A stretch of DNA of 64,000 nucleotides, taken from contig CAWGMG010000017.1 in assembly GCA_963823615.1 (NCBI GenBank), positions 52,730-116,729 of the forward strand, written 5' to 3'. Numbering within the stretch: the first letter of the stretch is position 1; every line of letters starts with the position of its first letter. Source of the stretch: an uncultured Verrucomicrobiae bacterium. GTDB taxonomy: Bacteria; Verrucomicrobiota; Verrucomicrobiia; Chthoniobacterales; Chthoniobacteraceae. Both the position numbers and the translations under genes were made by a program. Shown here piece after piece: positions 8,125 to 58,905 of the stretch. The notes under the pieces were generated by a model that saw nothing but the letters and a program-made list of their open reading frames with translations, searched no databases and was not told where the DNA came from.

Positions 8125-8246
8125 GTGGTCCGCTCAGTCCCGTGAGCGGCCCGGGGTGCATGGCGGACACGGAGGGGTCCTTCAGTAGGCGTCGGGTCTA
8201 GGGTCGAAGGGGCCGCCAGCCGGCCCGGCGAAAAGATGGTGGAAGA

Positions 8247-8289
8247 AAAAAGTGAAACATCTTTCCGATAGGGGTTGTGAGATTCGGTG
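8247..8289 (+). repeat. 43-nt module X (aaaagtgaaacatctttccgataggggttgtgagattcggtg); second copy at 19564-19605
   Basis: About 38/43 identity between the two copies; each lies ~300-390 nt upstream of a ctctgagacc repeat start. Confidence 0.7.
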
Positions 8290-8552
8290 CTGGAATGGGA
8301 GGGATGAAACCACCGGCTCTCCTCGATACGATTGGGAAGGCACGCAGGTTTGGAGTCCCGGCTTCAGCCGGCCGGGCGATCGCATCGCGGAGGTTGTCCG
8401 AAGATCCCGGCGCTCTTCGGGTGCCACATCTCGCCGCCCGAAGGCGGGACTCCGAACCTGGCCGCGCTTCGTGGGAGACGCGAAACGTGGCACTTCGTCC
8501 CGAAAGTGCTGCGCCCCGTGGTGCCTCCCGAGCCGCACTCTTTGCGCACTCA

Positions 8553-8585
8553 CTCTGAGACCCCGTTGCAGAATGTGCAACATCC
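8553..8585 (+). repeat. terminal repeat module ctctgagaccccgTTGCAgaatgTGCAAcatcc containing a TTGCA-N5-TGCAA inverted repeat; reverse copy at 50155-50189
   Basis: About 28/33 identity to the rc of 50155-50189 (cctctgagacccctTTGCAaaatgTGCAAaattcc); perfect 5-bp half-sites. Confidence 0.7.
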
Positions 8586-8650: not shown

Positions 8651-9059
8651 TGGGCAAATTTCGCCAGCCTCCGACTCCAAACCGGTGCAAATCTGTAACA
8701 AATTGTAACGAAACTCCGGATTCCGCCCACCTCGGGCCGTTCAATTGAACATTCGCCGGCCTGAGCTGTCTCACTTTCTGCGCCTTGAGCCCTCCGAAGG
8801 GGCGCTTCATCCCATGACGATTTTCCTCCTCTCTCTCGCGGCTCTTGGCGGGGCGCTTTGGCTTCGTGAACTCGCGGCGGCGCAATGTGCGGCGCTCGTG
8901 CGGGTCCGGGTGCGGCGCGGCCATTTTCGTTCCTTGAAATCATGAGCTCGGCGACCTCGATCTTTCCCCGGCGGAATGGGTGAAGCGTTCTTTCCCTGGG
9001 GCGCGGCGCCCGAAACAGCTTCCCCACCTGCCGTCGCGCCTGTTACGAAGCCGCGCACG

Positions 9060-9641
9060 ATGGAAGACGCCGGCCGCAAGCTCGACGACGCGCTCGTCGC
9101 CCGCACCCAGGCAGGCGACTCGGTGGCGTTCGATGAGCTCGTGGTGAAGTATTCGCCGCGCCTCTACGGCCTCGTCTACAACATGACCTCGAACCACGAG
9201 GACACGAACGACCTGCTGCAGGATGTCTGGGCCAAGGCGTATCGCTCGATCAAGGGCTTCCGCATGCAGTCGAGCTTCTACACGTGGCTGCACTCGATCG
9301 CCGTCAACATGACGATCAACTTCCTGAAGAAGCGCGGCCGCCGGCACTCGGTGAGCCTCGATGACGTCGAGAGCGGGGTGCAGAACGACAAGGAGTTTCT
9401 CGAGCTCACCGCGACCACGAATCCGGTGCGCGAGGCGGATCTCGGCGAGCTGCAAAAGCGGCTGAACGAGGCGATGCTCAAGCTCTCGGTCGATCACCGC
9501 GCGGTCGTCACCATGTTCGACATCCAGGGGATGCCGCACGCGGAGATCGCGAAGATTCTTGAAGGTGTCCGAGGGGACGGTCCGTTCGCGGCTGTTCTAC
9601 GCGCATCGGCAGTTGCAAAATTTCCTGACTGAGTTTCACTA
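9060..9641 (+). CDS. ECF-type RNA polymerase sigma-70 factor (frameshift near C-terminus ~9570)
   Basis: Region 2 (LVVKYSPRLYGLVYNMTSNHEDTNDLLQDVWAKAYRSI) and region 4 (DHRAVVTMFDIQGMPHAEIAKIL). After a 1-nt shift the frame ends ..TVRSRLFYAHRQLQNFLTEFH*. Confidence 0.85.
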
Positions 9642-19350: not shown

Positions 19351-19956
19351 GGCTGGGGATAGCCAGGAAAAGCCTACTTTCGCGAGGCGAATTGAGCCAG
19401 CCCAAATAACCCTTCGTGCGGCTTCCGAAGCGGCAGAGAACCGGCCGCAGGCAAGGTGCGGTTACCTGCATGAGGACCGCCGCGTGCGGGTGGCGGCTGA
19501 TGGCAGGGCTGCGAAGACCGCGCCCGCTCAGGCGTGACCCTGATTGCGAGCCGCCGGACGAAATAAAAGTGAAACACTTTTCCAATAGGAGTTGTGAGAA
19601 TCGGTGATTGAATCTTGGGGTGCTCACCGTGCCCTCATCCTCCCGGCAGGCTCAGAACCTCTGGCCCACCGCGGCAGCTGCGCAGTCGCCAAAGGCCCCT
19701 GAGCTTGCCGGCTGGGGAGTGCGTGCGCGGCCGCGCGGCCATGAATGCCGGGGGCCGAACCAGGGCCACGATCGATCGCAAACCGCTCCTGCCCGCGCAA
19801 GCGGCGGAGCACGCCAAACTCCACGCTGCTTCACGTGGTCCGCACAGTCCTCTGTGCGGTCGCCGCTTTCCGGGAAGATCGTCAGTGGCCGCGTTCGTTG
19901 TCTCTCGTTTGAAGCGGCTTCCCATAAAGCCGCGAAAGTCACGCTCGCCCACGCTT

Positions 19957-20590
19957 CCTCTGAGACCGATTCCCGAAATTCCCGAAATGCGCCCCCCACC
20001 ACTCAGCCGACGGCGTAAACTGTGCAAGCCTTCCCGAAACTCACCGCGCCTGCGTTTTTCCTCTGAGACCGATTCCCGTAATTCCCGAAATGCACCCACT
20101 CCCACCCGCTCAGCCGCGGCGAAAACCGTGCAATCCTTCCCGAAACTCCGCCGCGCCCGCGCTTTTCCTCTGAGACCGTTTCCCGTAATTCCCGAAATGC
20201 ACCCACTCCCACCCGCTCAGCCGCGGCGAAAACCGTGCAATCCTTCCCGAAACTCCGCCGCGCCCCGCGTTTCTCCTCTGAGACCGATTCCCGTAATTCC
20301 CGAAATGCACCCACTCCCACCACTCAGCCGGTGGCGAAAACCGTGCAATCCTTCCCGAAACTCCGCCGCGCCCCGCGTTTCTCCTCTGAGACCGATTCCC
20401 GTAATTCCCGAAATTCACCCGCTCCCACCACTCAGCCGGCGGCGAAAACCGTGCAATCCTTCCCGAAAATCCGCCGCGCCCGCGTTTTTCCTCTGAGACC
20501 GATTCCCGAAATTCCCGAAATTCACCCACTCCCACCATTCAGCCGGCGGCGAAAACCGTGCAATCCTTCCCGAAACTCGCCGGGCCAAAC
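19957..20590 (+). repeat. tandem array, 6 units of ~103-109 bp (unit starts ~19957, 20060, 20167, 20275, 20383, 20490)
   Basis: Unit cctctgagaccgattcccgtaattcccgaaatgcacccactcccacc..gcgaaaaccgtgcaatccttcccgaaactccgccgcgcc.. repeated with few substitutions; unit lengths are not multiples of 3. Confidence 0.9.
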
Positions 20591-20717
20591 CCGGTTGCCA
20601 ACCGCCTGTGATGCGGTAAAGTGCCCGCGCCCTTCAAGACACGCTTTCCTTCGACGTATTTTGCTAAGGCGCAACGCGTTCCCCGATTGACCTTCTGTAG
20701 AAAACACCCAGTCCCCC

Positions 20718-22352
20718 GTGTTCTCCAAAGCCTCCTTCTTTCTCGTCGGTTTCCTCGCGCTGGCCGGTCTGGCGCGGGCGGATGAGCCGCTGCATGTGCG
20801 CGTCGATCAGCTCATCGAAAAGCAGGCCGAGGGGCAGCCGATCGCGCCGCTCGCCGGCGACGCGGAGTTCCTGCGGCGGGTCTATCTCGATTTCGCCGGA
20901 GACCTTCCCACCGCGGCGGAGGCGCGCGCTTTCCTCGATGACCAGGCGCCGGACAAACGCGAGCAATTGCTCACGAAACTCCAGGCGGCCCCGCGCTTCG
21001 CGGAGCGACTGGCCGATGCGCTGAATGTGATGCTGATGGAGCGCCGCGGTGAGGACGCCGCGTGGCGCAAGTATCTCCAGGATTCGTGCACAGCGGGCAA
21101 GCCGTGGGATGTGATGGCAAAGGAGATGCTCGCCCCGGATTACGCAAATTCCGAGCTGAAGGGCGCCGGCTATTTCACCGTGCGCCGGCTGGAGAAGGTC
21201 GGGCAGCAGACAACGGATTATCCCGGCCTGACGCGCGATGCGGGGCGGATGTTTCTCGGCGTCGATCTCCAGTGCTGCCAGTGCCACAATCACCTCACGG
21301 TCAAGAGCTACAAGCAGGTCGATTTCAATGGGCTGTTCGTCGCCTTTCAAAACATCAAGCTCGAGGGCGCGGAGGGCAAGGCCATGAAGGTCCGCGAAGC
21401 GCCGCTGATGGCGAAGTACGATTTCGTCTCGGTGCTGACCAAAGTCGCCGGCCAGACCGGGCCGCGCATCCCCTTCGGCGAGGAGATCGAGATTCCCGAT
21501 CCGAAGTCCGACGACTACTGGGAAGTGAAGCCCGACCCGAAGAAGAAGGAGGTCGGAGTGGCGAAGTTCAGCCCGCTGAAGGAGATCGCCCAGCGCATCG
21601 CGACGAAGGAAAATCCGTGGTTCGTGAAGAACATCGCCAATCGCATGTGGTGGCTGCTCATGGGCCGCGGCATCGTGGAGCCGCTGGATTTGCATAACCC
21701 TGCCAATCCGCCCTCGCATCCCGAGTTGCTCGATCTCCTCGCCCAGGAAATGGCCGCGCACGATCTCAGCCTGCAATGGCTGCTCAAGGAGCTGTCGCTC
21801 ACGAAGACTTATCAAAGGACGAGCGTTCTGCCGGAGCCGGAGGCCCTGAGCTTGTCGAAGGGGGGCAAGGCGCCGCCGGAAAACCTGTTCCTGGTCGCCA
21901 AGGAGCGCCCGCTCTCGTCGGAGCAATTGGTCCGCGCGTTCCTGCGCGCCACCGGCGAGTACGACGCGGCGGCCGTGGCCGATGCGCCGAAGGGCCACGC
22001 GCTGGCGGATTTCGACAAGGCGTTTCGCGGCGCGTTTGCCAATGCACCCAAGGAGCCGGAGTTGACGGTGAACCCGACGCTCAAGTCCGCGCTTTTCCTG
22101 CGCAACAGCGACCTCGTTCTCTCCACCGTCAAGCCCGAGCATGGCAACCTCGTCGAACGGCTCGTCGCGGTCACTGACCCGAAGGCGCTCGCCGAGGAGC
22201 TGTATCTAACCATCCTCACGCGCCTGCCCACCGCGGAGGAAACGGCGGAGGTCAGCGTGTGGATCGAAAAGCATGCGTCCGATCGCCCGAAGGCGGTGGG
22301 TCATTATGCATGGGCTCTGCTGAGCTCTGAAGAATTTTTCTCCAATCATTAA
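20718..22352 (+). CDS. DUF1549/DUF1553 (PSCyt-type) domain protein
   Basis: Signal MFSKASFFLVGFLALAGLARA; CCQCHNHLT motif; typical partner of DUF1501 in PVC genomes. Confidence 0.85.
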   Translation: MFSKASFFLVGFLALAGLARADEPLHVRVDQLIEKQAEGQPIAPLAGDAEFLRRVYLDFAGDLPTAAEARAFLDDQAPDKREQLLTKLQAAPRFAERLADALNVMLMERRGEDAAWRKYLQDSCTAGKPWDVMAKEMLAPDYANSELKGAGYFTVRRLEKVGQQTTDYPGLTRDAGRMFLGVDLQCCQCHNHLTVKSYKQVDFNGLFVAFQNIKLEGAEGKAMKVREAPLMAKYDFVSVLTKVAGQTGPRIPFGEEIEIPDPKSDDYWEVKPDPKKKEVGVAKFSPLKEIAQRIATKENPWFVKNIANRMWWLLMGRGIVEPLDLHNPANPPSHPELLDLLAQEMAAHDLSLQWLLKELSLTKTYQRTSVLPEPEALSLSKGGKAPPENLFLVAKERPLSSEQLVRAFLRATGEYDAAAVADAPKGHALADFDKAFRGAFANAPKEPELTVNPTLKSALFLRNSDLVLSTVKPEHGNLVERLVAVTDPKALAEELYLTILTRLPTAEETAEVSVWIEKHASDRPKAVGHYAWALLSSEEFFSNH

Positions 22353-22370: not shown

Positions 22371-23654
22371 ATGTCGAATCCTCTCTGCACTCCACAGGAC
22401 CACATCCTCTCGCGCCGGCGCTTCCTCGGTCTCGGCGCGGGCGCGATGGCGGCCGGCGCGTTTGGCGGCCTCCTCTCCGCCCGGGCCGGCGAAGCGCTGA
22501 AGAAGAAGGAAAAGCAGGTCCTCTTCGTCTGGCTCGATGGCGGGATGAGCCAGCTCGAAAGCTGGGACCCGAAGCCGAACACGAAGTTTGGCGGCCCCTT
22601 CCGCACCATCCCGACGAACGTGACCGGCGTGCATTTGTCGGAGCTGATGCCGCGTCTCGCGAAGCAGATGGACAAGCTCTGTGTCGTGCGCAGCGTGAGC
22701 ACGCAGGACAACGCCCACTCCTCCGGCATCGAGCGCATCCAGCGCGGCGACCCGAAGACCCGCGGCGTCCCCTACCCTTACTTCGGCTCCGCCGTGGCGA
22801 AGCTCCTCGGGCCGTGCGAAAGCCATCTGCCGCCATATGTCTGGATCAAGCCCGGCGGCGGCGGTTTCCGCCCGGAAGACGGCGGTTTTCTCGGGCCGAA
22901 ATACGGCTCGCTCGCCTTTGGCGACGGACTTCCGCCGGATGATCTGCTGCGCAATCCGACGCTGACCGCGGAGGAGGACGACGAGCGCAACGAGCTCCGC
23001 GCGAAGCTGAACGAGCGCTTCGTCGCGCGCCGGCCGACGAACTATACCGAGGCGAACAGCCACGTCTTCGACACCGCGCGCGAGCTCATGAAACGCGCCG
23101 ACATTTTCGACCAATCCAAGGTCTCGGCCAAGGACCAGGAGCGCTACGGCCAACACGACCTCGGCCGGCACATGCTCTGCGCGCGCCGCATGCTGGAGTC
23201 GGGCGTCCGCTTTGTGAAAGTCACCAGCTACGGCTGGGACACGCACGGCGACAACTTCAACGCGCACGCCTCGCTGATGCCGAAGTTCGACCAATCGTTC
23301 AGCTCCATTCTCGAGGACCTCGCCGCGACCGGGCAGCTCGACCATACGCTCGTTATTGCGATGAGCGAATTTGGCCGCACGCCGCAGGTCAATGGGCACG
23401 CGGGCCGCGACCATTGGCCGGAAGCGTGGTCGATCGCGATGGCGGGTTGCGGCATTAGCAAAGGCGTCGTCGTCGGCGCCACGAACGAGACGGGGACCTA
23501 TGTGAAGGACAGCGGCTATGACATCGGCAGCCTCTTCCACACCTGGTTTAACGCGCTCGGGATCGACTCCGTGAAGGAGGAATACGACAACAAAGGCCAG
23601 CCGCTCCCCATCGCGCACGAAGATATGAAACCCATCAAGGAGGCCCTCGCGTGA
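22371..23654 (+). CDS. DUF1501 family protein with twin-arginine signal
   Basis: RRRFLGLGAGAMAAGAF (TAT motif); FVWLDGGMSQLESWDPKP..; sulfatase-like fold family. Confidence 0.85.
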   Translation: MSNPLCTPQDHILSRRRFLGLGAGAMAAGAFGGLLSARAGEALKKKEKQVLFVWLDGGMSQLESWDPKPNTKFGGPFRTIPTNVTGVHLSELMPRLAKQMDKLCVVRSVSTQDNAHSSGIERIQRGDPKTRGVPYPYFGSAVAKLLGPCESHLPPYVWIKPGGGGFRPEDGGFLGPKYGSLAFGDGLPPDDLLRNPTLTAEEDDERNELRAKLNERFVARRPTNYTEANSHVFDTARELMKRADIFDQSKVSAKDQERYGQHDLGRHMLCARRMLESGVRFVKVTSYGWDTHGDNFNAHASLMPKFDQSFSSILEDLAATGQLDHTLVIAMSEFGRTPQVNGHAGRDHWPEAWSIAMAGCGISKGVVVGATNETGTYVKDSGYDIGSLFHTWFNALGIDSVKEEYDNKGQPLPIAHEDMKPIKEALA

Positions 23655-47210: not shown

Positions 47211-47330
47211 CGAAAACGCGATGCTTCGAGACAAGGATGATGCGTGAAAACCAGGGGGCGTGGTCATGGATAGATAGGCGGCGGGCTGCGTTTATCTTAG
47301 CCGTATCTCTGCAAGACGCGCGCCTCTCCG

Positions 47331-47483
47331 GATGGGTAGCACAGGCGTCCCGCCTGTTCGGCTCGGCGTCCCGCCGAGTCGTCGACACGGCGCGTAGCAT
47401 TCACCAAATGGTGAGGACGAGCGCTTCGCGAGCCGCCGGGCGGGACGCCCGCCGGAACAGGCGGGACGCCTGTGCTACCCATC
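47331..47483. repeat. 153-bp nested palindromic element (29-bp perfect inverted repeat arms plus inner inverted repeats)
   Basis: gatgggtagcacaggcgtcccgcctgttc ... gaacaggcgggacgcctgtgctacccatc; inner ggcgtcccgcc/ggcgggacgcc and caccaaatggtg. Confidence 0.75.
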
Positions 47484-47559
47484 GTAGAGCCACGCGCGTT
47501 TTGCATAGTGCTTGGAAAAGCATGTCGAGCGTCAGAGCCGGCGGACTGGGCGAGCCTCC

Positions 47560-50067
47560 TCACATCTCTTCCGACTCCAGATCGACCAGGATTTCGCGCG
47601 GCTTGGCGCCTTCGCCGGGGCCGACGTAGCCGCGCATTTCCATGATGTCGAGGATGCGCGCGGCGCGCGTGTAGCCGAGCCGCAGCCGGCGCTGGAAGAG
47701 CGAGGTCGAGGCCTTCTTTTCCTGGCGCATGACCTCGTAGCATTTCTCCACGAGCTCCTCGTCCTCGGCGCTGACTTCCTCCTCTTCGTCCTCGCCGTCG
47801 CCTTCGAGCTTCTGATGGATGGCGCTCTCGAACTGCGGCTCGCCTTGCGCGGAAGCGTGCTCGACGACGCGGCGGACTTCGTCGTCGGAGACGAGCACGC
47901 CTTGCGCGCGGACCATGCGCGAGGTGCCCGGCGGCCGGTAGAGCATGTCGCCCATGCCGAGGAGCCGCTCGGCGCCGTTTTCATCGAGAATGACGCGCGA
48001 ATCGAGCGCCGACGCGACCTGGAAGGCGATGCGGCACGGGACGTTCGCCTTGATGACGCCGGTGATGACATCGGCGCGCGGCGTCTGCGTGGCGATGATC
48101 ATGTGGATGCCGGCGGCGCGCGCCTTTTGCGTGATGCGCGCGATGGCGCTCTCCACGTCGGCCGGCGCGGTCTGCATGAGGTCCGCCAACTCGTCGACGA
48201 TGATGACGATGTACGGCATCTGGTCGGGGACGATGAGGTCCATCTCGCGCGAGTTGCGCTGCTTGCCCATGTTCGTCACGCGCTCCTCGGAGGTGAGCGT
48301 CTCGGGGTCGACCGGCGCGGGTTCCACCGCCGGCGCGAGCGGGTCGAGCAGCGAGTCGTCGAAAAGCGCGGCCTGGCCCTTCTCGGCATCGAGCTCCTTT
48401 TGCGTCTTCGTCTTCGGCCGCGCGTTGAAGCCGCCGATATTGCGCACGCCCGTCTTGGCGAAAATGGCGTAGCGCTTTTCCATTTCATCGACCGCCCACT
48501 TCAGCGCGAGCAGCACCTTCTTCGGATCGGTGACGACCGGCACCACGAGGTGCGGCAGCGTATTGTACATCTGCATTTCGACCACCTTCGGGTCGATCAT
48601 GATGAAGCGCAGATCCTTCGGCGTGAACCGGTAGAGAATGGAGGAGATGATCGAGTTGATGCAGACGCTCTTGCCCGAGCCGGTGGTGCCGGCGACCAGG
48701 CCGTGCGGCATCGCGGCGAGATCGGCGATGATCGTCTTGCCGTAGACGTCCTTGCCGAGCGCGATCGGGATTTTGCACTTGGTCGAGTGAAATTCCTCGC
48801 TCTCCAGCAGCTCGCGAAAGGCGACCTTCTGCTTCTTGCAGGTTGGCGATCTCGATGCCGACGGTGTCCTTGCCGGGGATCGGCGCGAGGATGTTGATCC
48901 GCTCGGCGCGGGTGGCGCGCGCGATGTCGCGCTCGAGCGCGGTGATGCGATCGACGCGGACGCCCTTCGCCGGGTAGACCTCGTAGCGCGTGATGGTCGG
49001 GCCGCGCGTGATGTCGCCCGCGCGAGACCTCGATGCCAAACTGCGCGAGCGTCTCGATGATGACGACCTGCAGCGCCTTCAGCTCCTCCGGGATCGGCCG
49101 CCTGCCGGCTCGCGAGATCGAGCGGGTCGAGCAGATCGAACGACGGCATGCACGTAGTTCTCGCAGTCGACGCTCGCGAGGGTCGGGCGTCTCCTCGGGC
49201 TTCTCGCGCTTGATCCGCGGGAGCGGCGGCACGCTGGCATCGAAGATGACCGGCTCCGGCCGCGCCGGCTCGAGCGGGCTCCGCCGGTGCGTCGACCGGC
49301 GCGGGGATGACGAGCGTCTCCGCCTCGGCCTCGGGCGAACCGACGCGCACGGTGTTTTTCTTGAGCCGCTCCTTCGCTTCCTTCGCCGTCGGCGGCGTCA
49401 GCGCGCGCAGCTTCAGCGCCTCCTCCCTCGCCTTCGCCGCCGCGCGGGCTTCGCGCCAGGCGTGGACGCGCTCCGGCACGCTGCCGGCATACGCCAGGCT
49501 GCGCCGCAGGAGCGACACGGGCTGCAAGCCGGTCAGCAGCACGAGGCTGATGACGTAGAGCAGCGTGCAAATGATGAGCCCGCCGATGTGGCCGACGACC
49601 GCGTGCAGGAAATCGCCCGCGATCCATTTCCCGAGCCACCCGCCCTCGCCCGGCAGCCCGAGCCGGCGCGCATCGAGCACCGACCACGGCAGCAGATGGA
49701 GCAGGCAGGCGCCCGCGACGACGAAGACCGCCGCCCAGACCGCGCGCATGGAGAGCCGGAGGCTCGGCGAGAGCAGCTTGGCCCCGCCGCACCCGAGCAG
49801 GATCGCGGTGAAGAGATAAGAGGCCGCCCCGAGCAGCGAATACGACAGGCAGGCCATGATGGCCCCGAACGGCCCGATGAAGTTGCTGGAAACCCGCGCC
49901 GACCGCGCCACCGAGGCGAGCGGGAACCACGTGGGGACATCGTTCGGGGCGTAAGAGACGAGCGAGAGGAAGAGGAGGGTCCCGATGCCGAGCAGCACCA
50001 GGGCGACGACTTCGCTGTAGATGTGGTGCTCGCGGATGCGGGCGAGAGAGGTCTTGGAGGTCGCCAT
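47560..50067 (-). CDS. ftsK: DNA translocase FtsK/SpoIIIE (multiple internal frameshifts ~48480-49060)
   Basis: N-terminal TMs MATSKTSLARIREHHIYSEVVALVLLGIGTLLFL..; Walker A LVAGTTGSGKSVCIN; ..MIIATQTPRADVITG..; gamma domain RRLRLGYTRAARILDIME; middle part spread over 3 frames. Confidence 0.85.
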   Translation of the reverse strand: MATSKTSLARIREHHIYSEVVALVLLGIGTLLFLSLVSYAPNDVPTWFPLASVARSARVSSNFIGPFGAIMACLSYSLLGAASYLFTAILLGCGGAKLLSPSLRLSMRAVWAAVFVVAGACLLHLLPWSVLDARRLGLPGEGGWLGKWIAGDFLHAVVGHIGGLIICTLLYVISLVLLTGLQPVSLLRRSLAYAGSVPERVHAWREARAAAKAREEALKLRALTPPTAKEAKERLKKNTVRVGSPEAEAETLVIPAPVDAPAEPARAGAAGAGHLRCQRAAAPADQAREARGDARPSRASTARTTCMPSFDLLDPLDLASRQAADPGGAEGAAGRHHRDARAVWHRGLARATSRAARPSRATRSTRRRASASIASPRSSATSRAPPAPSGSTSSRRSPARTPSASRSPTCKKQKVAFRELLESEEFHSTKCKIPIALGKDVYGKTIIADLAAMPHGLVAGTTGSGKSVCINSIISSILYRFTPKDLRFIMIDPKVVEMQMYNTLPHLVVPVVTDPKKVLLALKWAVDEMEKRYAIFAKTGVRNIGGFNARPKTKTQKELDAEKGQAALFDDSLLDPLAPAVEPAPVDPETLTSEERVTNMGKQRNSREMDLIVPDQMPYIVIIVDELADLMQTAPADVESAIARITQKARAAGIHMIIATQTPRADVITGVIKANVPCRIAFQVASALDSRVILDENGAERLLGMGDMLYRPPGTSRMVRAQGVLVSDDEVRRVVEHASAQGEPQFESAIHQKLEGDGEDEEEEVSAEDEELVEKCYEVMRQEKKASTSLFQRRLRLGYTRAARILDIMEMRGYVGPGEGAKPREILVDLESEEM

Positions 50068-50180
50068 ACGTGTCTTCGGCGGGGAGTTATTCACAATTGT
50101 GAGCGAGGTTGGCGAGCAGGAAGCGCGAGACAGAAATGCCGCCGGCGGCTGAGGGGAATTTTGCACATTTTGCAAAGGGG

Positions 50181-50414
50181 TCTCAGAGGAAGAGCGGGCG
50201 CCGTGGCGCCGGAGGCCCTGAGCGTGGCGAAGGTGCCGCAGGCCCTGAGCCGGTCGAAGGGTTTCGGGAAGGTTTGCGCAGTTTCGCGGGACGCTGGACG
50301 AGGCATTTCGGGAATTTCGGGAATCGCGCTCAGAGTAAGTGAAGGAGCCGGCGAGAGGAGGCTGAGGCGAGGTTTCGGGAAGGAATGCGCAGTTTTCACG
50401 GGAGTGGCTGGGCG
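50181..50414 (-). repeat. tandem repeat array (same family as 19957-20590, inverse orientation), part 1: ~2 units ending at the intron 3' junction
   Basis: rc units ..cgaaatgcctcgYccagc..gaaaactgcgcattccttcccgaaac..; terminal palindrome module at 50155-50189. Confidence 0.85.
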
Positions 50415-52498
50415 AGGCATTTCGGTAGAGTAGGCGGGAAGCGACGGATTGAGAGGCACACGGCCAATGACCGTCTGCTTCCCGCCCCTCATCAAACCGG
50501 ACAGGCGGTTTTCCCGCATCCGGCTTTCCGAGTTCCATTCTCGAAAAGCGCTGTCTCATGTGCATGGGGTCGGCATTTTGTAGAGCCCGTATTGCGTGAA
50601 GAGTTCCCGATTTGCCCAGCGTTTGTATTTGCCACAGGGATTGCCGTGCTTGCGCCATAACCACTGCCGGAGGCGGTGGGCCACGAAGGTATTCAGTTGC
50701 CCGAAGCTCCGATGGTACTGGGCGAGGGCAAAGAAATTGCCCCAGCCACGGGTCACTTGGTTGATTTCACGCACGACTTCCTCGGTCGCTCTCCACACGG
50801 AGCGCGCGTGGGTTAGCTCGCGCACCCGGTCGCGGAGCGCCTGCCCCTCGGCGGGCTCGGGGCCTTGAGCTTGTCGAAACGGCTCCGCTTCCGGGCTGGG
50901 CTCGATGTGCACGTACGCCGTCTTCTTCTTGGATTGTTGCCAGCGGAAGCTGAAGCCGAGGAACTCAAAACCGCTTTCACGGCTCTGGAGCACTTCGGTT
51001 TTCTTCTCGTTGAGGGCCAGGCCGCGGCTTTGCAGCCAGCGGGCCAGCCGCTCCTTCATGCCCGCTCCTTGCCCGGTTCCGCAGAGGATGACCAGATCGT
51101 CCGCAAAGCGGACCATCCACGGCTTTTGCCGGCACTGTTCATTGACCCCTTCATCCAGCGGATGCAGGTAAATGTTGGCCAGCAGGGGCGAGATGACGCC
51201 TCCCTGCGGTGCGCCGCAGGGGTTGGCCTTCATCTTCCGCCCGCCGCCTTTCTCCTCCTCCATCACCGGGGCGCGCAGCCATCCTTTGATGAGCTGGAGG
51301 ATCGTCCCGTCCCTCACCCGCCGCGCCACCAGCCGCAGCAGTTTCCCGTGCGGGATCGTGTCGAAGTACTGCGCCAGATCGGCGTCCACTACCGAGGAGG
51401 CGGAGGGGACAAGGGAGGTTGCAGGGCGGGCGAGCCCTTCGGTGCGGCCACTGCGCAGCCCCTGCCGGATCGCCTCCACCGCCCCGTGCGCTCCACGCCC
51501 GGGCCGATAGCCGAAGGAGAGCGGATGGAAGTCCGCCTCGAAAATCGGCATCAGCACCAAGGACACGGCCATCTGCACCACGCGATCCTTCACCGTCGGG
51601 ATGCCCAACCGGCGCACCCCTCCATCGGGCTTCGCGATCTCCGCCCGGAGCACTGGCGCCGGCCGGTACGTCTTGGCGCGCAACTCCTCCCGCAGCGCCT
51701 CCAGCCACGCCACTTCCTTTTCCTGATCTGCCGCAAGGTCCGCAATCTCCACTCCAGCAACCCCCGCGACCCCGCCATGGGCCTTCACGCGCCGCCACGC
51801 TGTCTCCAGCACATCGGCGCGCTGCACCTCTCCATACAGACTCCAGAACCGGGAGCCCGGACTGGACTTCGCTTTCCGATACAGCGTGATTTGCAACTGC
51901 CGAACCTTTTTGGGTGCTGGTAGCTCCTGCGAGCCGTCACCACGGCTCGCCCGGGACCCTGCCGCCACTTGTCCCGTGCGCCGCCGCCTCGGTCCTTCGT
52001 TGCGCTTCACTTCTGCGGAACAAGTGGCGTCCCTTTGCTCCCCCATGTTTTCTCCGAACCAGAGGTCCAGCATGGGATCAACGCTACTACGAACGCCTCC
52101 GACTTCTGCCGTGGCCGCACGGCCTCCCTCTTTCGGAGAGGTTGGGCCGCTTGTTGAGTCAGGTTTACTCGCCATGGCAGATCTCCCCGTTTACCCGCAC
52201 ATCACTTCGCGACATGTCGTCCACGCCGACCCCGCCGGTCTAATATCCCCACCCGCGACGGTTGGTCTGGGTGCGGACTCTTCGGCCTTCGCCCAAATTC
52301 CAGGGGCTCGGCTGCCGGGAGTATCCTTTCGAGGCTCATTTATGTGGTTCATATGGTTATTACGACCTGCCGGTTCGACTCCATGCCTGCTCCCCACCCC
52401 GCCTCGCGGCGACGCAGTTGGCACGGTCTTCGGTGCTGAACCGTCTAAGTGCACCGGCGGGACTTGCACCCGCGTTGATGTGCGCTTTGCGGGCGCAC
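50415..52498 (-). mobile_element. group II intron (2084 nt) with intact RT/maturase ORF
   Basis: 5' end GUGCGCCCG (rc of 52490-52498); domain V aaGCCGGAugCGGgaaaaCCGccugUCCGGuu (rc of 50481-50516); domain VI GGGCGGGAAGC..GCUUCCCGCC then ..uacucuac 3' end at 50415; IEP ORF lies between. Confidence 0.85.
50556..52175 (-). CDS. group II intron-encoded reverse transcriptase/maturase (true start probably at an internal Met, ~52046-52073)
   Basis: RT0-RT7 motifs: ..VLETAWRRVKAHGGVAGVAGV.., IAKPDGGVRRLGIPTVKDRVVQ, FADDLVIL (YADD variant); maturase/X domain; C-terminus GNPCGKYKRWANREL. Confidence 0.85.
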   Translation of the reverse strand: MASKPDSTSGPTSPKEGGRAATAEVGGVRSSVDPMLDLWFGENMGEQRDATCSAEVKRNEGPRRRRTGQVAAGSRASRGDGSQELPAPKKVRQLQITLYRKAKSSPGSRFWSLYGEVQRADVLETAWRRVKAHGGVAGVAGVEIADLAADQEKEVAWLEALREELRAKTYRPAPVLRAEIAKPDGGVRRLGIPTVKDRVVQMAVSLVLMPIFEADFHPLSFGYRPGRGAHGAVEAIRQGLRSGRTEGLARPATSLVPSASSVVDADLAQYFDTIPHGKLLRLVARRVRDGTILQLIKGWLRAPVMEEEKGGGRKMKANPCGAPQGGVISPLLANIYLHPLDEGVNEQCRQKPWMVRFADDLVILCGTGQGAGMKERLARWLQSRGLALNEKKTEVLQSRESGFEFLGFSFRWQQSKKKTAYVHIEPSPEAEPFRQAQGPEPAEGQALRDRVRELTHARSVWRATEEVVREINQVTRGWGNFFALAQYHRSFGQLNTFVAHRLRQWLWRKHGNPCGKYKRWANRELFTQYGLYKMPTPCT

Positions 52499-53210
52499 GG
52501 AATTACGGGAATCGGTCTCAGAGTAAATGAGGGAGCCGGGTGAGCCGGAGGCCCTGAACCTGTCGAAGGGTTTCGGGAAGGAACGCGCAGTTTTCGCGGG
52601 ACGCGTGGGCGTGAATTTCGGTAATTTCGGGAATCGCGTTCAGAGTAAATGAGGGAGCCGGTGAGCCGGAGGCCCTGAGCCTGTCGAAGGGTTTCGGGAA
52701 GGATTGCGCAGTTTCGCGGGACGCGTGGGCGTGAATTTCGGTAATTTCGGGAATCGCGTTCAGAGTAAATGAGGGAGCCGGTGAGCCGGAGGCCCTGAGC
52801 CTGTCGAAGGGTTTCGGGAAGGTTTGCGCAGTTTTCGCGGGACGCGTGGGCGTGAATTTCGGTAATTTCGGGAATCGGGCTCAGAGTAAATGAGGGAGCC
52901 GGTGAGCCGGAGGCCGTGAGCCTGTCGAAGGGTTTCGGGAAGGTTTGCGCAGTTTTCGCCGGTTCCGGTCGTCCCATTCTTCCCCTGCTTCCCGTCCCCG
53001 CGCCCGGTCCGCGACCAATTTCGGTAATTATGGGAATCACCCTCAGAGCGAATGAGCAGATACGGAGGGTAGTTTCGGAACAGATTGCGCAGTTTCGCGG
53101 GAAAGATGGCAGCGCGAGTTTCGGTAAGTGTGGGAATCGCCCTGAGAGTGAATGAAGGACGCGGAGTGGCATTTCGGGAAGGATTGCGCGGTTTCGCGAG
53201 ACGGCGGCCC
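52499..53210 (-). repeat. tandem repeat array part 2: ~4 near-identical 120-121 bp units (starts 52499, ~52613, ~52733, ~52854) then ~2-3 degenerate units
   Basis: Unit gaatttcggtaatttcgggaatcgcgttcagagtaaatgagggagccggtgagccggaggccctgagcctgtcgaagggtttcgggaagg(a/t)ttgcgcagttt(t)cgcgggacgcgtgggcgt. Confidence 0.9.
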
Positions 53211-53685
53211 GCGGATGCGGGAATGTGGCAAGCGGTTCGACCGATCGTGCGGCACAAGCGGTGCCCTCCCGGGAACGCCAATCTCGCGATTGGCGCAGCT
53301 GGCGGTTCACGCAGCTGGCGGTTCAAGGAGTCGGGGCGCCCTCGCCCCGAGTTTCTGGCCCGCGCCGCGCTGCGGGCCGCGGCGGCCGCGACTCGCCAGC
53401 GGAAGATTGGCGTTCCGAGGGGGCGCCTTGCGCAGCGCGCGCCCGACCCGCGGCGGCAGTGACACCGCTGGGTCGGAGACGGGGGTGAAGTGGCGAGCGG
53501 CCCAATGCGCATTCCGCCATGCTACCACAGGTTCTCGAATTCTGTGTTCCATACACGAAGATGTTGTGAGCGCCTGCGTGGGAGCCAATTTTTGCCTACT
53601 CGAGACTCGCGTCATCGTCGTGTTCCACAACTACTCTCACGTTTTCGACATTTTCGGCAAGCGGCTCCGTGAAGGGCCCCACAAA

Positions 53686-53773
53686 GGGTGGAACCGCCAA
53701 GACGCCAAGGCGCCAGGAAAAGCTGATGGATCGTGGTCTTCCTTGGCGTCTTGGCGTCCTGGCGGTTCCACCC
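53686..53773. repeat. ~32-bp imperfect inverted repeat (about 29/32 pairing) with 23-nt loop; strong hairpin
   Basis: gggtggaaccgccaagacgccaaggcgccagg ... ccttggcgtcttggcgtcctggcggttccaccc. Confidence 0.7.
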
Positions 53774-53962
53774 TTTTGATTCCGGCTCTGTCGGGGTTAG
53801 GCATCTCGGTGCAGCGACCTGAACAGCCAACGAAATGACTCGAATTGAAACGAATGGTTTGCAGCCTTCCGTATTCGATTCAATTCGGCGTGATTCGTTG
53901 GCCCTCGCGCTTGCCTTCACTGGCAGACTCAGGCTCAATCCCAGCCACCTCCGGGACCGCTC

Positions 53963-56928
53963 ATGGCATATCGTTTCGATGTCGCATTCTCCTTCGCCGG
54001 CCCTCACCGCGAGAAGGTGCGGGCCATCGCCGAGCTTGTCGCGGCGAAGCTCGGGAAGAAGCGCGTTTTCTTCGACGAGTGGTACCGAGCGGAAATCCTC
54101 GGGGGGAATATGCGCGTGCTGCTCCAGCGTATCTATGGAGAGAAAAGTCTCATGGTTGTCGCGGATCTTTCGCAAGACTACGCCGATCGGCCTTGGAGTC
54201 AGGGCGAAAGCGAGGCCATCGATGCTCTGCGGATGCGAATCGACTCGGCGCGCGACGAGACCGCGCGCCTGCGGGTGTTCATCGTGCGCTTCGGTCCCGG
54301 CGAGGTGCCTGGCGTCTTGGAAAACACCGGCTGGCTCGATGGCGCAGCCCTCTCCGTGGAAGAAATCGCCGGCGCGATTTTGGAGCGACTCGACCTGCTC
54401 AATGAACGCATGGGCGAAAGCGCCACCCCTGCCCCGCCACCGCCGGTCCCCTTGGCTCCCTCTCTTCCAGCGTCCCCCTCTTCCGCTCCGCCGATCCTCT
54501 TCTTTCACCCCGCTACCAACGACGCCCTCTACTCCCGGCGCGAGCGCGAGTTGGACTGGCTCGACGAGTGCGCGAAAAATCCCGCAATCCGCATCGCCAC
54601 CGTCACCGGCGTCGGTGGGCTGGGGAAGACCTCGCTCGTCGGGCATTGGATCGAGAAGGCGCGCGGCTGGCAGCATCGCGCCTTTCACGGCGTGTTCTTC
54701 TACAGCTTCTATTCCGATCGCGACCCGAAGCATTTCTTCGCGGCGTTCCTCCAATTCGTCTGCGAGCAGGAGAAGATCGAGGCCCTTCCTCCGGATCGTC
54801 CGCTCCATCATCTTGCGGCCGCAGCGGTGCGCAAGTGGTGCTACCTCGTGGTGCTCGATCGGCTCGAGGTGCTCCAGCACGACGAAAGCGATCCGCACTA
54901 CGGCTGGATCAACGACGGCGCGCTCAATGAATTCGTCGCGCGCGCCGGGGCGGCGGGGCCTTCGCTGCTCGTGCTCACCAGCCGCTTCCCCTTCCCGGAA
55001 GTCACGCGCGAGCATCCCGAGGCCGCCCGCGCGTGCGAGCTGCCCCTGCTTACCGACGACGAAGGCGCCGACCTGCTCGCCCATTGCGGTCTCGACGGCG
55101 GGCGGGAGAAGCTGCGCGGCTACAGCCATCAATTTGGCGGGCATCCGCTCGCGCTGCGGCTCTTTGCCGGCGCGTGCCTCGCGCAGCCCTTCGATGAACC
55201 GGAGACGGTGAGCCGGCACTTGCTCGCGGCAGGTGCGGAGGCGGGCGAAGAGGACGCGCATCGCCGGCAGTTCCGCAAGCTGCTGCTCTGGCTGCAAAAG
55301 AAACTCCCCGTAGAAAAGCGCCGACTGCTCCAGCTCGTCGCGCTCTTTCGCGAGCCGGTGCCCACAGCCACGCTCGCCGCGCTCGCCACGGGGCTCGATG
55401 CGATGAAGGCGGACTTCGGCGATTGCGACGCTGCGCGTCTCCTTTTCCTCCTTGATGCCCTGGTGCGTGATCAGTTTACTCCAGCGCGAGGAAGCGCCCG
55501 GCAGCGACACCGCCCGCTGGGCGGCGCATCCCATTGTGCGCGAGGTCTTCCGCGTCGAGGCACTGGCGTCTGGCGACACGGTCGCGCAGCAGTTTGCCGG
55601 GATCGTCGCGGGAAAGGGGGCGGGCCGCGCGCCCCGGAGCGTGGCGGAATTGCAGCCGATTCTGGAGGCGATCGAGTTGCTCCTCGCTGCGGGGGATTTC
55701 AAGTCGGCCGATGAGGTGTATCGCGGGCGGTTGGAGAATGGTGACGTATTCAAATGGATTCCCGCCCCGCATGAGGGGCTGCATTGCGCGCGGGGATTCA
55801 TCGAGCCGCAGGAACGTCGCGCAACGCTGGAGCAATTGGTCGGGCGGGAAGCGACAGCGCGCTACTTCAACGCTGTGGCGGGTCTTGGAAGCATTGTTGG
55901 CGAAATGGACCGGGTGGAGAGCCTGTATATTGAAATGCGCTACCTCTACACGGTCGAGTGCAATTGGAACGCCATCTCCGGTAGTTTCCAAAGCCTCGCG
56001 GCGGTTCAAACACTTCGCGGGATGCTGCGAGAGGCGGTCGCGCGCGCGAACGAGGCTCTCGCTTTTTGCGGGATCCAAGCAGTGAGGACATCTTGGAACG
56101 TCCCGCCCCTCCATCCAACGGACAAGCTGAACATTTTGATCGATAAAGATTTAAACTGCACTTCCCTCGCATACCGGGCAAACGCGCTTTCACTCGCGGG
56201 GGAATTGCCCGCCGCCGGTCGTGACTTTGCTTCGTCCGATACGCTCCAGCGCTTGGGTCACCGCGAAAACGTCGCACTTCACTCGCTCCGGGGCATCCAG
56301 TGGTGCCGCCATTGTCTGCGCCTCGGCGAGGCGGACGGCGCCCGCCGCCTCGCTGAGGCAAATTGGAGCGATCTGCGCGCGGAATCAATGGACCGCCGAC
56401 CTCGCCGCGTGCGACCTCCTCCTCGGTGAACTCGATTTCGCAGCGGGCGACCGCGATTCCGCCGAACAACGAATCGGCGCGGCCGTGCGGATCTTTCGCG
56501 AGGCCCGGCAGGGGATGGACCTCCCTGACGCGCTGCTCGCGCAGGCGCGGCTGCGGGGGAGCATTGAGGATTGCGAAGAGGCGCTGCGGCTCGCGGCCCG
56601 GAGCGGCTTTGCGCTGAAGCAGTGCGACGCCCTGAATCTCCGCGCCCGTCTCCGGCGTGAGGCCGGCCAGCCCGCCGACGCCGCCAAGGATGCCCGCGAC
56701 GCGCTCGATATCGCCGAGCGGTGCGGCTACTACTGGGGCCGGCATGAAGCCTTGCGCCAGCTTCGCGATGTCGCGAAGGCGCTCGGGAATCGCGCGGATG
56801 AGAGGCATTGGGACGAAGCCGAAAAGGCGCTGGCTGCGCGCATGAAGCCGGAGGTCGAAGAGGCGCTGCGGATCAATCGCGAGCACGATGCGGAAATGGA
56901 GCGGCTTTACGGAAGGCCGAAGCCGTAG
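53963..56928 (+). CDS. TIR - NB-ARC (STAND P-loop NTPase) - TPR protein, NLR-like; split over 3 frames (shifts ~55440 and ~56250)
   Basis: TIR: FDVAFSFAGPHREKVRAIAELVAAKL..VFFDEW..SLMVVADLSQDYADRPWSQGESEAI (conserved Glu present). P-loop IATVTGVGGLGKTSLV; hhhhD LVVLDRLE; LLVLTSRF; C-terminal TPR-like repeats to ..ERLYGRPKP. Confidence 0.7.
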
Positions 56929-57248: not shown

Positions 57249-58337
57249 ATGCCTCGCAGCTTGCGCATCCAGTACCCCGGCGCGTTTTATCACGTCATGG
57301 CGCGGGGCAATGGACGGGCGGATATCTTTCGCGGCGATGCGGACCGGACGCTTTTTCTCCGCACGCTCGGCGAAGCCTGTGGGCGGACCGGCTGGCGCGT
57401 GCACGCCTGGGTGCTGATGCGCAATCACTACCATGTGGTGCTGGAAACGCCGGAGCCGAATCTGGTCGAGGGGATGCAGTGGCTGCAGAATGCTTACACG
57501 CGGCGCTTCAACACGCGGCACCGCGGCTGGGGCCGGTTATTCGGCGACCGCTACAAGGCGGTGCCCGTGGAGGGGGAAGGGTACTACTACGAGACGCTGC
57601 TGAAATCGCGGGCGCATCACGCGCGCAGTCCGAATACCGTGGAGGGGGAAGGGTACTACTACGAGACGCTGCTGGATTACGTCCACCTGAACCCGGCGCG
57701 CGCGGGGTTGATTCCGATGGCCAGCGGCGGAAGTCTGCGCGACTACCCGTGGAGCAGCGTGGCGGCCGGATACGCGCTGCCGCCGGGGCGCCGGGCGAAA
57801 TGGCTCGCGGTGGAGGACGGCCTGGCGAGCTTTGGCTGCGGCGATACGGCGGCTGGCCGCCGCAGTTTTGTCGCGCGGCTCGATGTGCGCGCTCTGGAGG
57901 AGCCGCGAGCCAAGACGGGCTTGCCGGCGCTCGATCCGGAGCGTGACCGGCGGAGGAGCACGCTGGCGGACGGCTGGTACTGGGGGAGCCAAGCCTTCGC
58001 GGAGCGTCTGCTGGCGCTGGGGGAAGCAGTGATCGGACGTCCCGGGCACCGATCCGCGCGGAGTACGCAGGAGAAGCGCGCGCATGGCGAACTGGTCGCC
58101 CGCGAGCTACTCGAGGAAGGGCTCCGCCGGGCGAAGCTGACCCGTGAAGAGCTCCCCGCTCTTCCTGGGAGCGATCTGCGCAAAGTGGCGCTCGCCAGCG
58201 CGATCTGGGAGCAAACCATTGTGAGCATGGCATGGCTGGCGGAGCATCTGGCGATGCGGAGCGCGGCCAATGCGAGCCAGCAAATTCGCCGCTACCGGCT
58301 GGCCCAGGCCAAGCCGCTGTCAAGAAATGTCGCCTGA
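57249..58337 (+). CDS. IS200/IS605-family Y1 (HUH) transposase, RAYT-like N-domain fused to DnaA-C-terminal-like HTH domain
   Basis: AFYHVMARGNGRADIF..HAWVLMRNHYHVVLETPEPNLVEGMQWLQNAYTRRFN (HuH = HYH; catalytic Tyr in NAYTRRFN); C-terminus SDLRKVALASAIWEQTIVSMAWLAEHLAMRSAANASQQIRRYR resembles DnaA domain IV; internal 36-bp perfect direct repeat 57567-57602 / 57639-57674. Confidence 0.75.
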   Translation: MPRSLRIQYPGAFYHVMARGNGRADIFRGDADRTLFLRTLGEACGRTGWRVHAWVLMRNHYHVVLETPEPNLVEGMQWLQNAYTRRFNTRHRGWGRLFGDRYKAVPVEGEGYYYETLLKSRAHHARSPNTVEGEGYYYETLLDYVHLNPARAGLIPMASGGSLRDYPWSSVAAGYALPPGRRAKWLAVEDGLASFGCGDTAAGRRSFVARLDVRALEEPRAKTGLPALDPERDRRRSTLADGWYWGSQAFAERLLALGEAVIGRPGHRSARSTQEKRAHGELVARELLEEGLRRAKLTREELPALPGSDLRKVALASAIWEQTIVSMAWLAEHLAMRSAANASQQIRRYRLAQAKPLSRNVA

Positions 58338-58481
58338 CCCCTATGTTTAAGTGACCCCTATGTTTAAGTTCCCATCTCGCTATTTAAAACACCCGATGTC
58401 TGGCTCGTCGCCGGCGTCGCTTATGGTATCGCGACAGGTGAGAACGACGCTTTTACGGGCGAGGCATTATCAAAGCCATTT

Positions 58482-58715: not shown

Positions 58716-58797
58716 GCACATGGGGGTCAGCACATGGGGGTCAGCACATGGGGGTCAGCACATGGGGGTCAGCACATGGGTCAGCACATGGGGGTCA
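58716..58797 (+). repeat. tandem 14-bp repeat cacatgggggtcag x~6, an amplification of a unit present once at 57199-57212
   Basis: cacatgggggtcagcacatgggggtcagcacatgggggtcagcacatgggggtcagcacatgggtcagcacatgggggtcag. Confidence 0.85.
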
Positions 58798-58843
58798 GGC
58801 GACATTTCTTGACAGGCCGGGTGGGTTTTCGTGAAATCGTCGC

Positions 58844-58905
58844 ATGCCTCGCAGCTTGCGCATCCAGTACGCCGGCGCGTTTTATCACGTCATGGCGCGG
58901 GGCAC
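58844..58905 (+). pseudogene. truncated duplicate of the transposase 5' end (first ~20 codons plus promoter block)
   Basis: MPRSLRIQYAGAFYHVMARG identical/near-identical to 57249-57308, then diverges into the antisense 3' end of the HK gene. Confidence 0.6.

Follow-up and report, generated by a model that had tools for sequence, protein, structure and literature searches.

A mosaic intergenic repeat family of uncultured Chthoniobacteraceae, probably selfish or neutral, and its apparent use as a homing site by a group II intron lineage

Interspersed repeats are, to our knowledge, almost undescribed in Verrucomicrobiota. In Mycobacterium, the mycobacterial interspersed repetitive units (MIRU), minisatellites of the variable-number tandem repeat (VNTR) type, consist of head-to-tail intergenic units of 40-120 bp that are oriented like the neighbouring genes; they sit in operons, often with short open reading frames (ORFs) overlapping the flanking stop and start codons. 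The Rickettsia palindromic elements (RPEs), of 100-150 nt, are inserted in frame in genes, and class C group II introns find their targets behind terminators or in integron attC sites. The BOX elements of Streptococcus pneumoniae are modular intergenic repeats that were judged to be parasitic and not functional for the host (Croucher et al. 2011, PMC3049150). Within BOX, one internal module occurs in tandem, its copy number being variable, and co-transcription with neighbouring genes is possible (PMC3049150). The repetitive extragenic palindromes (REPs) and bacterial interspersed mosaic elements (BIMEs), which have cognate REP-associated tyrosine transposases (RAYTs), are abundant mosaic intergenic repeats for which tandem clusters are possible (PMC3333891, PMC2817692), and REPs are the preferred insertion targets of other mobile elements, namely REP-specific insertion sequence (IS) elements (PMC1525189). 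The present analysis deals with a repeat family in a stretch of 64,000 nucleotides (the window) from an uncultured Verrucomicrobiae bacterium of the family Chthoniobacteraceae (contig CAWGMG010000017.1), where it forms two arrays, one of them containing a group II intron. This family is read, with moderate confidence, as a mosaic minisatellite akin to BOX, BIME and MIRU that is selfish or neutral, lineage-restricted, non-coding and intergenic and would offer the intron a multicopy safe harbour.

The arrays of the window are the following:

19955-20590, + strand: array 1, six head-to-tail units of 100-108 bp (~107 bp), as found with Tandem Repeats Finder (TRF), nhmmer and an identity matrix
~50153-53203, - strand: array 2 as a whole, ~nine units of 100-162 bp with a group II intron inside; the repeat part amounts to ~950 bp
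52499-53203, - strand: distal part of array 2, with a partial U0, U1, U2, U3-U5 and the 5' part of U6 ending in ...GATTCCCGTAATTCC
50153-50424, - strand: proximal part of array 2, with the 3' part of U6, U7 and a terminal variant unit
50153-50188, - strand: terminal variant unit of array 2, CTCTGAGACCCCTTTGCAAAATGTGCAAAATTCCCC

Array 1 was retrieved by TRF as 5.9 copies of a 107-bp unit (19955-20586; 93% matches; score 1025), in agreement with the six head-to-tail units that the initial annotation, made from the letters alone, had placed at 19957-20590. Each unit opens with block A (CTCTGAGACCGATTCCCGWAATTCCCGAAAT), which a C-rich spacer separates from block B (GCGAAAACCGTGCAATCCTTCCCGAAAC); a short spacer closes the unit. 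The 9-mer TTCCCGAAA is present three times per unit, two of these copies being adjacent in block A, and was counted 26 times in the 64-kb window against 0.63 expected. All exact copies lie within arrays 1 and 2, none being found elsewhere in the 64 kb, and copies with one mismatch are weakly enriched outside the arrays (16 versus ~8 expected). Searches with nhmmer, using the consensus of either array, recovered all units of the two arrays, which lie on opposite strands; no further convincing match was obtained in the 64-kb window. The same family is thus indeed present in inverse orientation in a second region (~50153-53203), as had been proposed. The second array had also been described as the larger one, spanning 50181-53210; its repeats are genuine (~950 bp in ~nine units), but its size of 3 kb is not, as 2,074 bp of it are the group II intron. 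Similarly, of the "several loci" announced, the two arrays hold, and what is found otherwise is one degenerate, non-tandem locus (~8246-8585). Within array 2, TRF reported 3.8 copies of a 121-bp unit with 96% identity (52501-52959). Unit U2 has a long G-rich spacer, U3-U5 are 94-97% alike, and U7 holds two tandem 27-nt modules (TRF period 27 at 50208-50260). Both arrays thus display the head-to-tail intergenic units of a minisatellite or VNTR (5.9 x 107 bp and 3.8 x 121 bp).

The identity matrix of array 1 gave 93-96% identity for the central units and 83-87% for the edge units. Over both arrays, the central units were 93-97% identical, versus 83-87% (array 1) or 51-73% (array 2) for the edges, which is the classic signature of homogenisation by unequal exchange. 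The arrays expand, contract and homogenise as unequal recombination or replication slippage would lead one to expect. In addition, every unit of both arrays carries private substitutions. As these differ unit by unit, they argue against a simple artefact of collapsed reads, with which they would be hard to square.

The anatomy of the units was derived by aligning 15 units of differing sequence, taken from six loci. Block A has the consensus CTCTGAG-N3-GATTCCCGWAATTCCCGAAAT and block B the consensus GCGAAAACNGNGCAATCCTTCCCGAAAC; the 13-nt sequence AATTCCCGAAATT is an imperfect palindrome (10/13). The spacer between blocks A and B varies freely in length (~5 to ~40 nt) and content and may enclose other small modules, among them the 27-nt module described below, and the stretch from block B to the next block A measures 22 nt in array 1 and 45 nt in array 2, the two sequences being unrelated. 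Units of 100, 103, 107, 108, 114, 120-122, 147 and 162 bp were seen. A variant block A, in which two copies of TTGCAAAAT replace the two copies of TTCCCGAAA, is found at 50153-50188, at 8553-8585 and in the related locus L074 (related loci are given as L numbers throughout), whereas block B is reiterated alone, without block A, in L005. A module of 25-27 nt (CCTTCGACAGGCTCAGGGCCTCCGG) occurs once per unit in array 2 and is absent from the units of array 1. Blocks A and B, the variant block A, the 27-nt module and block B alone thus come in differing combinations, as in mosaics of the BOX/BIME kind, and this recombination of modules makes the family a mosaic without a single fixed unit. The sense strand of the arrays contains 39-42% C and 19-21% G, the genome 32% of each. 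Literature searches on the motif and on Chthoniobacter repeats retrieved nothing relevant, and the family appears not to have been filed before as a sequence family.

The insertion in array 2 comprises:

50425-52498, - strand: group II intron of 2,074 nt, within U6 of array 2
50556-52175, - strand: reverse transcriptase (RT)/maturase ORF (Pfam RVT_1 and GIIM; NCBIfam TIGR04416, 341 bits)

The intron begins with GUGCGCCCG, ends in ...CUAC and is inserted inside the motif TTCC/CGAAA, between TTCC and CGAAAT of block A of U6. Its identity as a group II intron follows from the 5' GUGYG end (present as GTGCGCCCG), domains V and VI (Rfam RF00029 at 50425-50528, 47.3 bits versus a gathering score of 40), the RT/maturase ORF, in which no endonuclease domain was found, and the restoration of its target. 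Indeed, upon excision in silico, ...GATTCCCGTAATTCC meets CGAAATGCC... and an intact unit is restored. Furthermore, the final 6-7 nt of the 5' exon have their complement in a GGAATT(A) loop at intron nt 198-203/204. Altogether, six copies of the intron (the window, L040 and L067-L070) have differing flanks and an identical position in block A, with the shared junction ...GATTCCCRTAATTCC / intron / CGAAAT... (in full, ...CTCTGAANGCGATTCCCATAATTCC / GTGCGCCCG...CTAC / CGAAATTC...); for L040 this refers to the 3' junction only, its 5' side lying off the contig. The copies L067-L070 were reached via their RT proteins and are 78-87% identical to the window intron in RT and 88-93% in intron DNA, L040 having been reached via the metagenome scan and standing outside the RT comparison. 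A related intron with a 70%-identical RT (L071) uses a target unrelated to the repeat family. At the level of sequence, these insertions show that one group II intron lineage homes specifically to block A, which supplies the intron with a multicopy, harmless target. The lineage would thus exploit block A as a reiterated target in harmless DNA. Since the intron recognises one strand, its orientation alone is uninformative on transcription; a spreading intron lineage would, however, need some sense transcription of its host sites.

In L071 (2740-6617), two related introns are arranged head-to-tail, the second exactly at the 3' end of the first. Several contigs with the intron are only ~2-2.7 kb long, and L072 ends in E1, an element found upstream of repeat units (see below), which is consistent with assemblies breaking at these repeats.

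Downstream of array 1, the following features were found:

20595-20622, + strand: sigma-70-type promoter, TTGCCA-N16-TAAAGT (promoter scan), between array 1 and the PSCyt2/PSD1 gene
20718-22352, + strand: PSCyt2/PSD1 gene (DUF1549/DUF1553; Pfam and orthologues), downstream of array 1
22371-23654: DUF1501 gene, after the PSCyt2/PSD1 gene

Upstream of the orthologous PSCyt2/PSD1 genes, six units are present in the window, one in L072 and none in L077 and L073, the encoded proteins being 95%, 89% and 85% identical to that of the window, respectively; the gene of L072 is 80% identical to that of the window at fourfold degenerate sites. Hence, the copy number differs at an orthologous locus (6/1/0/0), as expected for a VNTR. 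The promoter is kept in the relatives with one or zero units (TTGCAA-N16-TAAACT, TACAGT or TAAAGT). As close relatives with one or no unit keep the same downstream promoter, array 1 is, as far as these comparisons indicate, recent, dispensable for PSCyt2/PSD1 and located upstream of the real, predicted promoter of the gene. In L077 and L073, a YjbQ gene is found upstream of the PSCyt2/PSD1 orthologue instead. To the left of the filled site, the sequence shares no homology with that of the empty sites, and the gene order is broken there. Because the PSCyt2 array coincides with this break in gene order, ectopic recombination between copies would be one plausible route of dispersal to new sites. 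At the position of array 1, L077 carries another insertion (2030-2215) of ~190 nt, which is GC-rich and has long inverted repeats, resembling a miniature inverted-repeat transposable element (MITE).

A different history is apparent for array 2, which is associated with:

47560-50067, - strand: ftsK (Pfam FtsK_4TM, FtsK_SpoIIIE and FtsK_gamma), downstream of array 2 and on the same strand as its units
53507-53584, - strand: conserved 80-nt block (blastn), ~300 nt upstream of array 2, 86-88% identical in L075 and L074

The closest named relatives of the window FtsK are those of Chthoniobacter species (57-60% identity). The ftsK orthologues of L075 (82%) and L074 (80%) are preceded by ~five or six diverged units in the same orientation, among which U2 of the window, with its long G-rich spacer, has a positionally homologous unit in both. 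The number and order of units differ between these three lineages, indicating that the family is old at ftsK and still turning over. The conserved 80-nt block is found at 444-523 in L075 and at 4905-4984 in L074, both ftsK loci, and contains the extended -10-like sequence TGgTAGCAT. It may represent a promoter, predicted from this motif and its conservation, that would feed array 2, the intron and ftsK through a long leader.

Beyond the ftsK-side region, a long near-perfect palindrome (53681-53778; ...GGAACCGCCAGGACGCCAAGACGCCAAGG...CCTTGGCGTCTTGGCGGTTCC...) separates it from a divergent gene (53963-55714) with weak matches to TIR and NACHT-like ATPase domains. In Rfam, the palindrome yielded sub-threshold matches to miRNA precursors alone, reflecting the hairpin. 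A GC-rich interspersed repeat, with hairpins of the ACAGGCGTCCCGCCTGT type and GGGACGCC motifs, is 83% identical between L005 (2100-2276) and the window (47300-47506) and is thus common to a Chthoniobacteraceae metagenome-assembled genome (MAG) and the window region just downstream of ftsK.

To delimit the host range, 185,579 genomes, one per species, were scanned with a 21-base block A pattern. Matches were obtained only in four contigs of one Chthoniobacteraceae MAG and in one further contig, L003 (CAWCZF010000004.1, 542 kb), which is labelled 'uncultured Actinomycetota'. The latter contig possesses E1 and 4-5 tandem units, 77-80% identical to those of array 1, upstream of an ORF with a signal-peptide-like start and without Pfam match; its label or bin may be wrong. 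A scan of metagenomes with an 18-base block B pattern returned 61 loci, of which only L024 and L040 are real members. No true family members were found in plasmid, phage and viral collections. A viral, plasmid or phage origin was thus rejected; the 38 matches of a 16-base block B pattern among viruses represent an unrelated coding sequence. Wherever a carrier had a comparable shared gene, this gene was ~82-92% identical to the window DNA, which, together with the scans, confines the family to roughly one genus-level clade of Chthoniobacteraceae. The copy census covers the 64-kb window and the matched contigs.

Besides the two arrays, the window contains scattered pieces of the family and of associated elements:

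~8246-8585, + strand: degenerate, non-tandem third locus, with an E1 copy, a block B variant and a variant block A
8246-8297, + strand: E1 copy of the third locus (E1 match)
8480-8507, + strand: block B variant of the third locus, GCGAAACGTGGCACTTCGTCCCGAAAGT
8553-8585, + strand: variant block A of the third locus, CTCTGAGACCCCGTTGCAGAATGTGCAACATCC
8976-9632: gene for an extracytoplasmic function (ECF) sigma factor (Pfam), upstream of which the third locus lies
19560-19625, + strand: E1, an element of ~65 nt, AAAAGTGAAACACTTTTCCAATAGGAGTTGTGAGAATCGGTGATTGAAT (AAAAGTGAAACAYYTTTCCRATAGGRGTTGTGAGAWTCGGTG...), upstream of the units of array 1
21836-21862, + strand: 27-nt module GCCGGAGGCCCTGAGCTTGTCGAAGGG, in frame in the PSCyt2/PSD1 gene, adding PEALSLSKG

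The E1 element recurs at 8246-8297 in the window, at 2440-2500 in L003 and at 1-45 in L072, always upstream of units, and its copies score pairwise far above shuffled sequences. Neither a sigma-70 promoter nor an Rfam match was found in E1. The insertion of PEALSLSKG is missing in all six closest homologues of the PSCyt2/PSD1 gene, including the 95%-identical one, in both protein and DNA alignments. The 27-nt module or its reverse complement is also present in L001 (7445), L005 (2607), L069 (2261) and L072 (71 and 121), as well as inside the intron RT ORF (50845-50883, - strand). The latter is one of three in-frame insertions that distinguish this ORF from its relatives, the other two (51945-51992, 48 nt, and 51393-51437, 45 nt) being one element in opposite orientations, with an alignment score of 15 versus 1.6 +/- 3.2 in shuffles; the ORF stays open. 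L002 was dropped as a further case of a module within an ORF, since the DHQ synthase gene probably begins only downstream of the module.

As to a possible RNA product, the sole match in the whole window at the Rfam gathering score is domain V of the intron, none being found in the units, and permissive E-value searches with both arrays and three related loci gave only sub-threshold chance matches. This agrees with the initial annotation, which called the family undescribed. Its suggestion of an element like a non-coding RNA was not supported, since folding of single units yielded z-scores of -1.2 to +0.8 versus shuffled sequences over both strands (+0.3 to +0.8 on the sense strand), and RNAalifold, applied to 15 diverse units from 6 loci, predicted no pairing (0 base pairs) for the sense strand and, for the antisense strand, a single weak hairpin of 6 bp whose covariation term is close to 0. 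These folding models show that the units do not encode structured RNA. Clustered regularly interspaced short palindromic repeats (CRISPR) have short repeats (about 23-55 bp) and unique spacers of similar length. The units of 100-162 bp, with "spacers" that are 93-97% identical between neighbouring units, are no CRISPR array, as had rightly been concluded from the near-identical spacers. Protein-coding repeats were likewise rejected, because the unit lengths shift the frame across units and arrays and the spacer indels are not multiples of three. The claim that unit lengths are never multiples of three was too strong (units of 108, 108 and 120 bp occur), but the non-coding nature drawn from it stands, as the frame is not kept.

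Several known signals were compared with the units. No sigma-70 promoter or intrinsic terminator consensus was found inside them; a likeness of block B to the -35 region of the PSCyt2 promoter (AAACCGGTTGCAATCC) is not accompanied by a -10 element. A sigma-54 promoter in block B was rejected by eye, as its GG-N10-GC signature fits array 1, whereas the GG is missing in most units of array 2 and the spacing varies in L003 and L001. An ECF-type promoter (GAAAC...CGT) was dismissed for its inconsistent spacing between the arrays, and a Noc/ParB-like site (the Noc-binding site being ATTTCCCGGGAAAT) because the repeats here are direct and not inverted. Concerning MITEs, terminal inverted repeats and target-site duplications were not identifiable in the units; the only inverted match, between E1 and block A (14/18 bases), is weak. 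A candidate partner for REP-like elements is nevertheless encoded in the window:

57249-58337, + strand: gene for a RAYT-like Y1 (IS200-like) transposase (Pfam PF01797, 4e-9)
58335-58369 and 58716-58860: repeat regions of the RAYT-like gene

Its match to NCBIfam REP_Tyr_transpos (3e-12) falls below the cut-off of that family. Downstream of the gene, six tandem copies of GCACATGGGGGTCA are present, which are unrelated to the TTCCCGAAA family, and beyond these, the first codons of the gene are duplicated together with the region preceding it.

Several observations weigh against a selfish or neutral nature of the family. Arrays persist upstream of ftsK in three lineages. At seven of nine independent loci (arrays 1 and 2, 8246-8585, L003, L004 (PolX), L068 and L069), the units are directed at the 5' end of the gene that follows, this gene having been called by eye from N-terminal sequence only in L003, L068 and L069; in L005 and L067, they run toward the 3' end of a convergently oriented gene. 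Pure neutrality accounts less readily for such a bias than does a role linked to transcription or a preference in insertion. Both blocks, A and B, show ~90% conservation, versus 76-79% identity at the fourfold degenerate sites of ftsK between the genomes of the window, L074 and L075. This modest excess could reflect constraint, or else ascertainment, since the units were found by their blocks, and the level of those sites weakens the case for strong purifying selection on the blocks. Moreover, the analysis revealed neither an enzyme that would mobilise the family nor terminal inverted repeats or target-site duplications. The persistence at ftsK, the orientation and the block identity somewhat above the synonymous-site level would suit cis-regulatory arrays, with candidate sites for a DNA-binding protein (the TTCCCGAAA 9-mers and AATTCCCGAAATT) controlling or insulating ftsK, PSCyt2 and the ECF sigma gene, as would the fact that sequence is conserved while structure is not. 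Such a role is doubtful, as close relatives with the same promoter have a single unit or none at PSCyt2, helical phasing is lost with the variable A-to-B spacing, the exact 9-mer is lacking elsewhere in the 64 kb with its one-mismatch copies weakly enriched, and the downstream genes have no obvious functional link. If constrained, the blocks would act as linear protein-recognition sequences and not as RNA structure. Marginally more doubtful still is the speculation that the blocks are recognition sites of a DNA- or RNA-binding protein, that the arrays serve as a copy-number-dependent regulatory or titration device or as an RNA sponge, with three UUCCCGAAA per unit, and that the intron co-evolved to ride array transcription.

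Transcription of the arrays into a C-rich, unstructured leader or decoy RNA, acting as a putative Rho-loading (rut-like) tract or as a sponge for a UUCCCGAAA-binding protein, would account for the excess of C over G on the sense strand, which, by prediction, has no more structure than shuffled sequences. It would also fit the conserved promoter-like block upstream of the ftsK array and the colonisation of at least six sites by an intron lineage that needs sense transcription for mobility. Base composition by itself is no proof of Rho or protein binding, however, the units contain no promoter or terminator consensus, and the PSCyt2 promoter lies downstream of array 1, which places this array outside the leader of that gene; the proposal is therefore held to be quite unlikely. 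Mobilisation in trans of a non-autonomous MITE- or REP-like element by an enzyme recognising its two blocks, A and B, tandem growth then being secondary, is improbable. The scattering of the family over several unrelated intergenic sites per genome, the landing of the related 27-nt module in frame in two ORFs and the RAYT-like Y1 transposase gene 4 kb from array 2 speak for it. Yet, this gene is flanked by its own unrelated repeats (the six GCACATGGGGGTCA copies), hairpins of the type used by Y1 transposases are missing from the units, neither terminal inverted repeats nor target-site duplications could be defined, and the single comparison of a filled with an empty site has a non-homologous left flank. 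Finally, short-read assemblies are error-prone at tandem repeats, and a mechanical ORF (19615-20496) traverses array 1, but an assembly artefact or a protein-coding repeat is very improbable in view of the unit-specific substitutions, the tandem family in independent assemblies (4-5 units in L003, ~6 in L075), the frame-breaking unit lengths of 100-162 bp and the lack of a Pfam match for the ORF that enters array 1 (19608-20018). Selfish or neutral behaviour, rather than a host-encoded function, is hence what we infer for the family, and the present evidence favours selfish or neutral DNA over regulation of ftsK.

Several implications follow from this reading. The family provides a ready VNTR marker for an uncultured Chthoniobacteraceae clade and is a probable cause of assembly breaks, as several contigs end at or near the repeats and introns appear as isolated contigs of ~2 kb. 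It also offers a clean natural case of a group II intron lineage that has specialised on non-coding DNA present in many copies, and its independent insertions, of which there are at least six, lend themselves to the study of target recognition. If the blocks did bind a protein in front of ftsK, they would constitute a new regulatory input to cell division in the phylum. The initial annotation was correct in placing the element among the satellite-like or REP-like kinds; calling it unusual in a compact bacterial genome was overstated, as bacteria have familiar modular intergenic repeats in BOX, BIME/REP and MIRU. The intron and its homing site, the copy-number polymorphism, the mosaic build and the 27-nt module within a gene had gone unmentioned there. 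What appears to be new is the sequence family and the pairing of intron and repeat, the kind of element being already well known.

Among known systems, BOX is the closest analogue, being likewise small, modular, intergenic and restricted to a narrow clade, with a reiterated internal module. BOX modules are extensively structured, in contrast to the units of the window, so that the two are set apart by structure and not by a sequence comparison; host phylum and base composition are unrelated too. We know of no intron that homes into BOX. REPs are imperfect palindromes of 20-40 nt in alternating orientation, whereas the units of the window are head-to-tail, ~100-120 bp long and not palindromic; REP/BIME proper was rejected, also because the repeats flanking the RAYT-like gene (57249-58337) are unrelated to the units. 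The REP-targeting IS elements (PMC1525189) do provide a precedent for a mobile element specialised on an interspersed repeat. With MIRU, the family shares head-to-tail intergenic units and a copy number that differs between close relatives, but the coupling of MIRU to stop and start codons was not seen in the arrays of the window. The likeness to RPEs concerns the 27-nt and ~45-nt modules only, which are found both intergenically and in frame within genes while leaving ORFs unbroken; these modules are shorter (27-48 nt), not obviously palindromic and known from only three or four cases. Finally, class C introns resemble the window intron in having no endonuclease domain detected and in using harmless, reiterated, non-coding sites in a fixed orientation, a comparison that rests on target use and not on a class assignment of the window intron. 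The target of class C introns is a hairpin motif, whereas that of the window intron is a specific sequence of 20-25 nt within a lineage-specific repeat.

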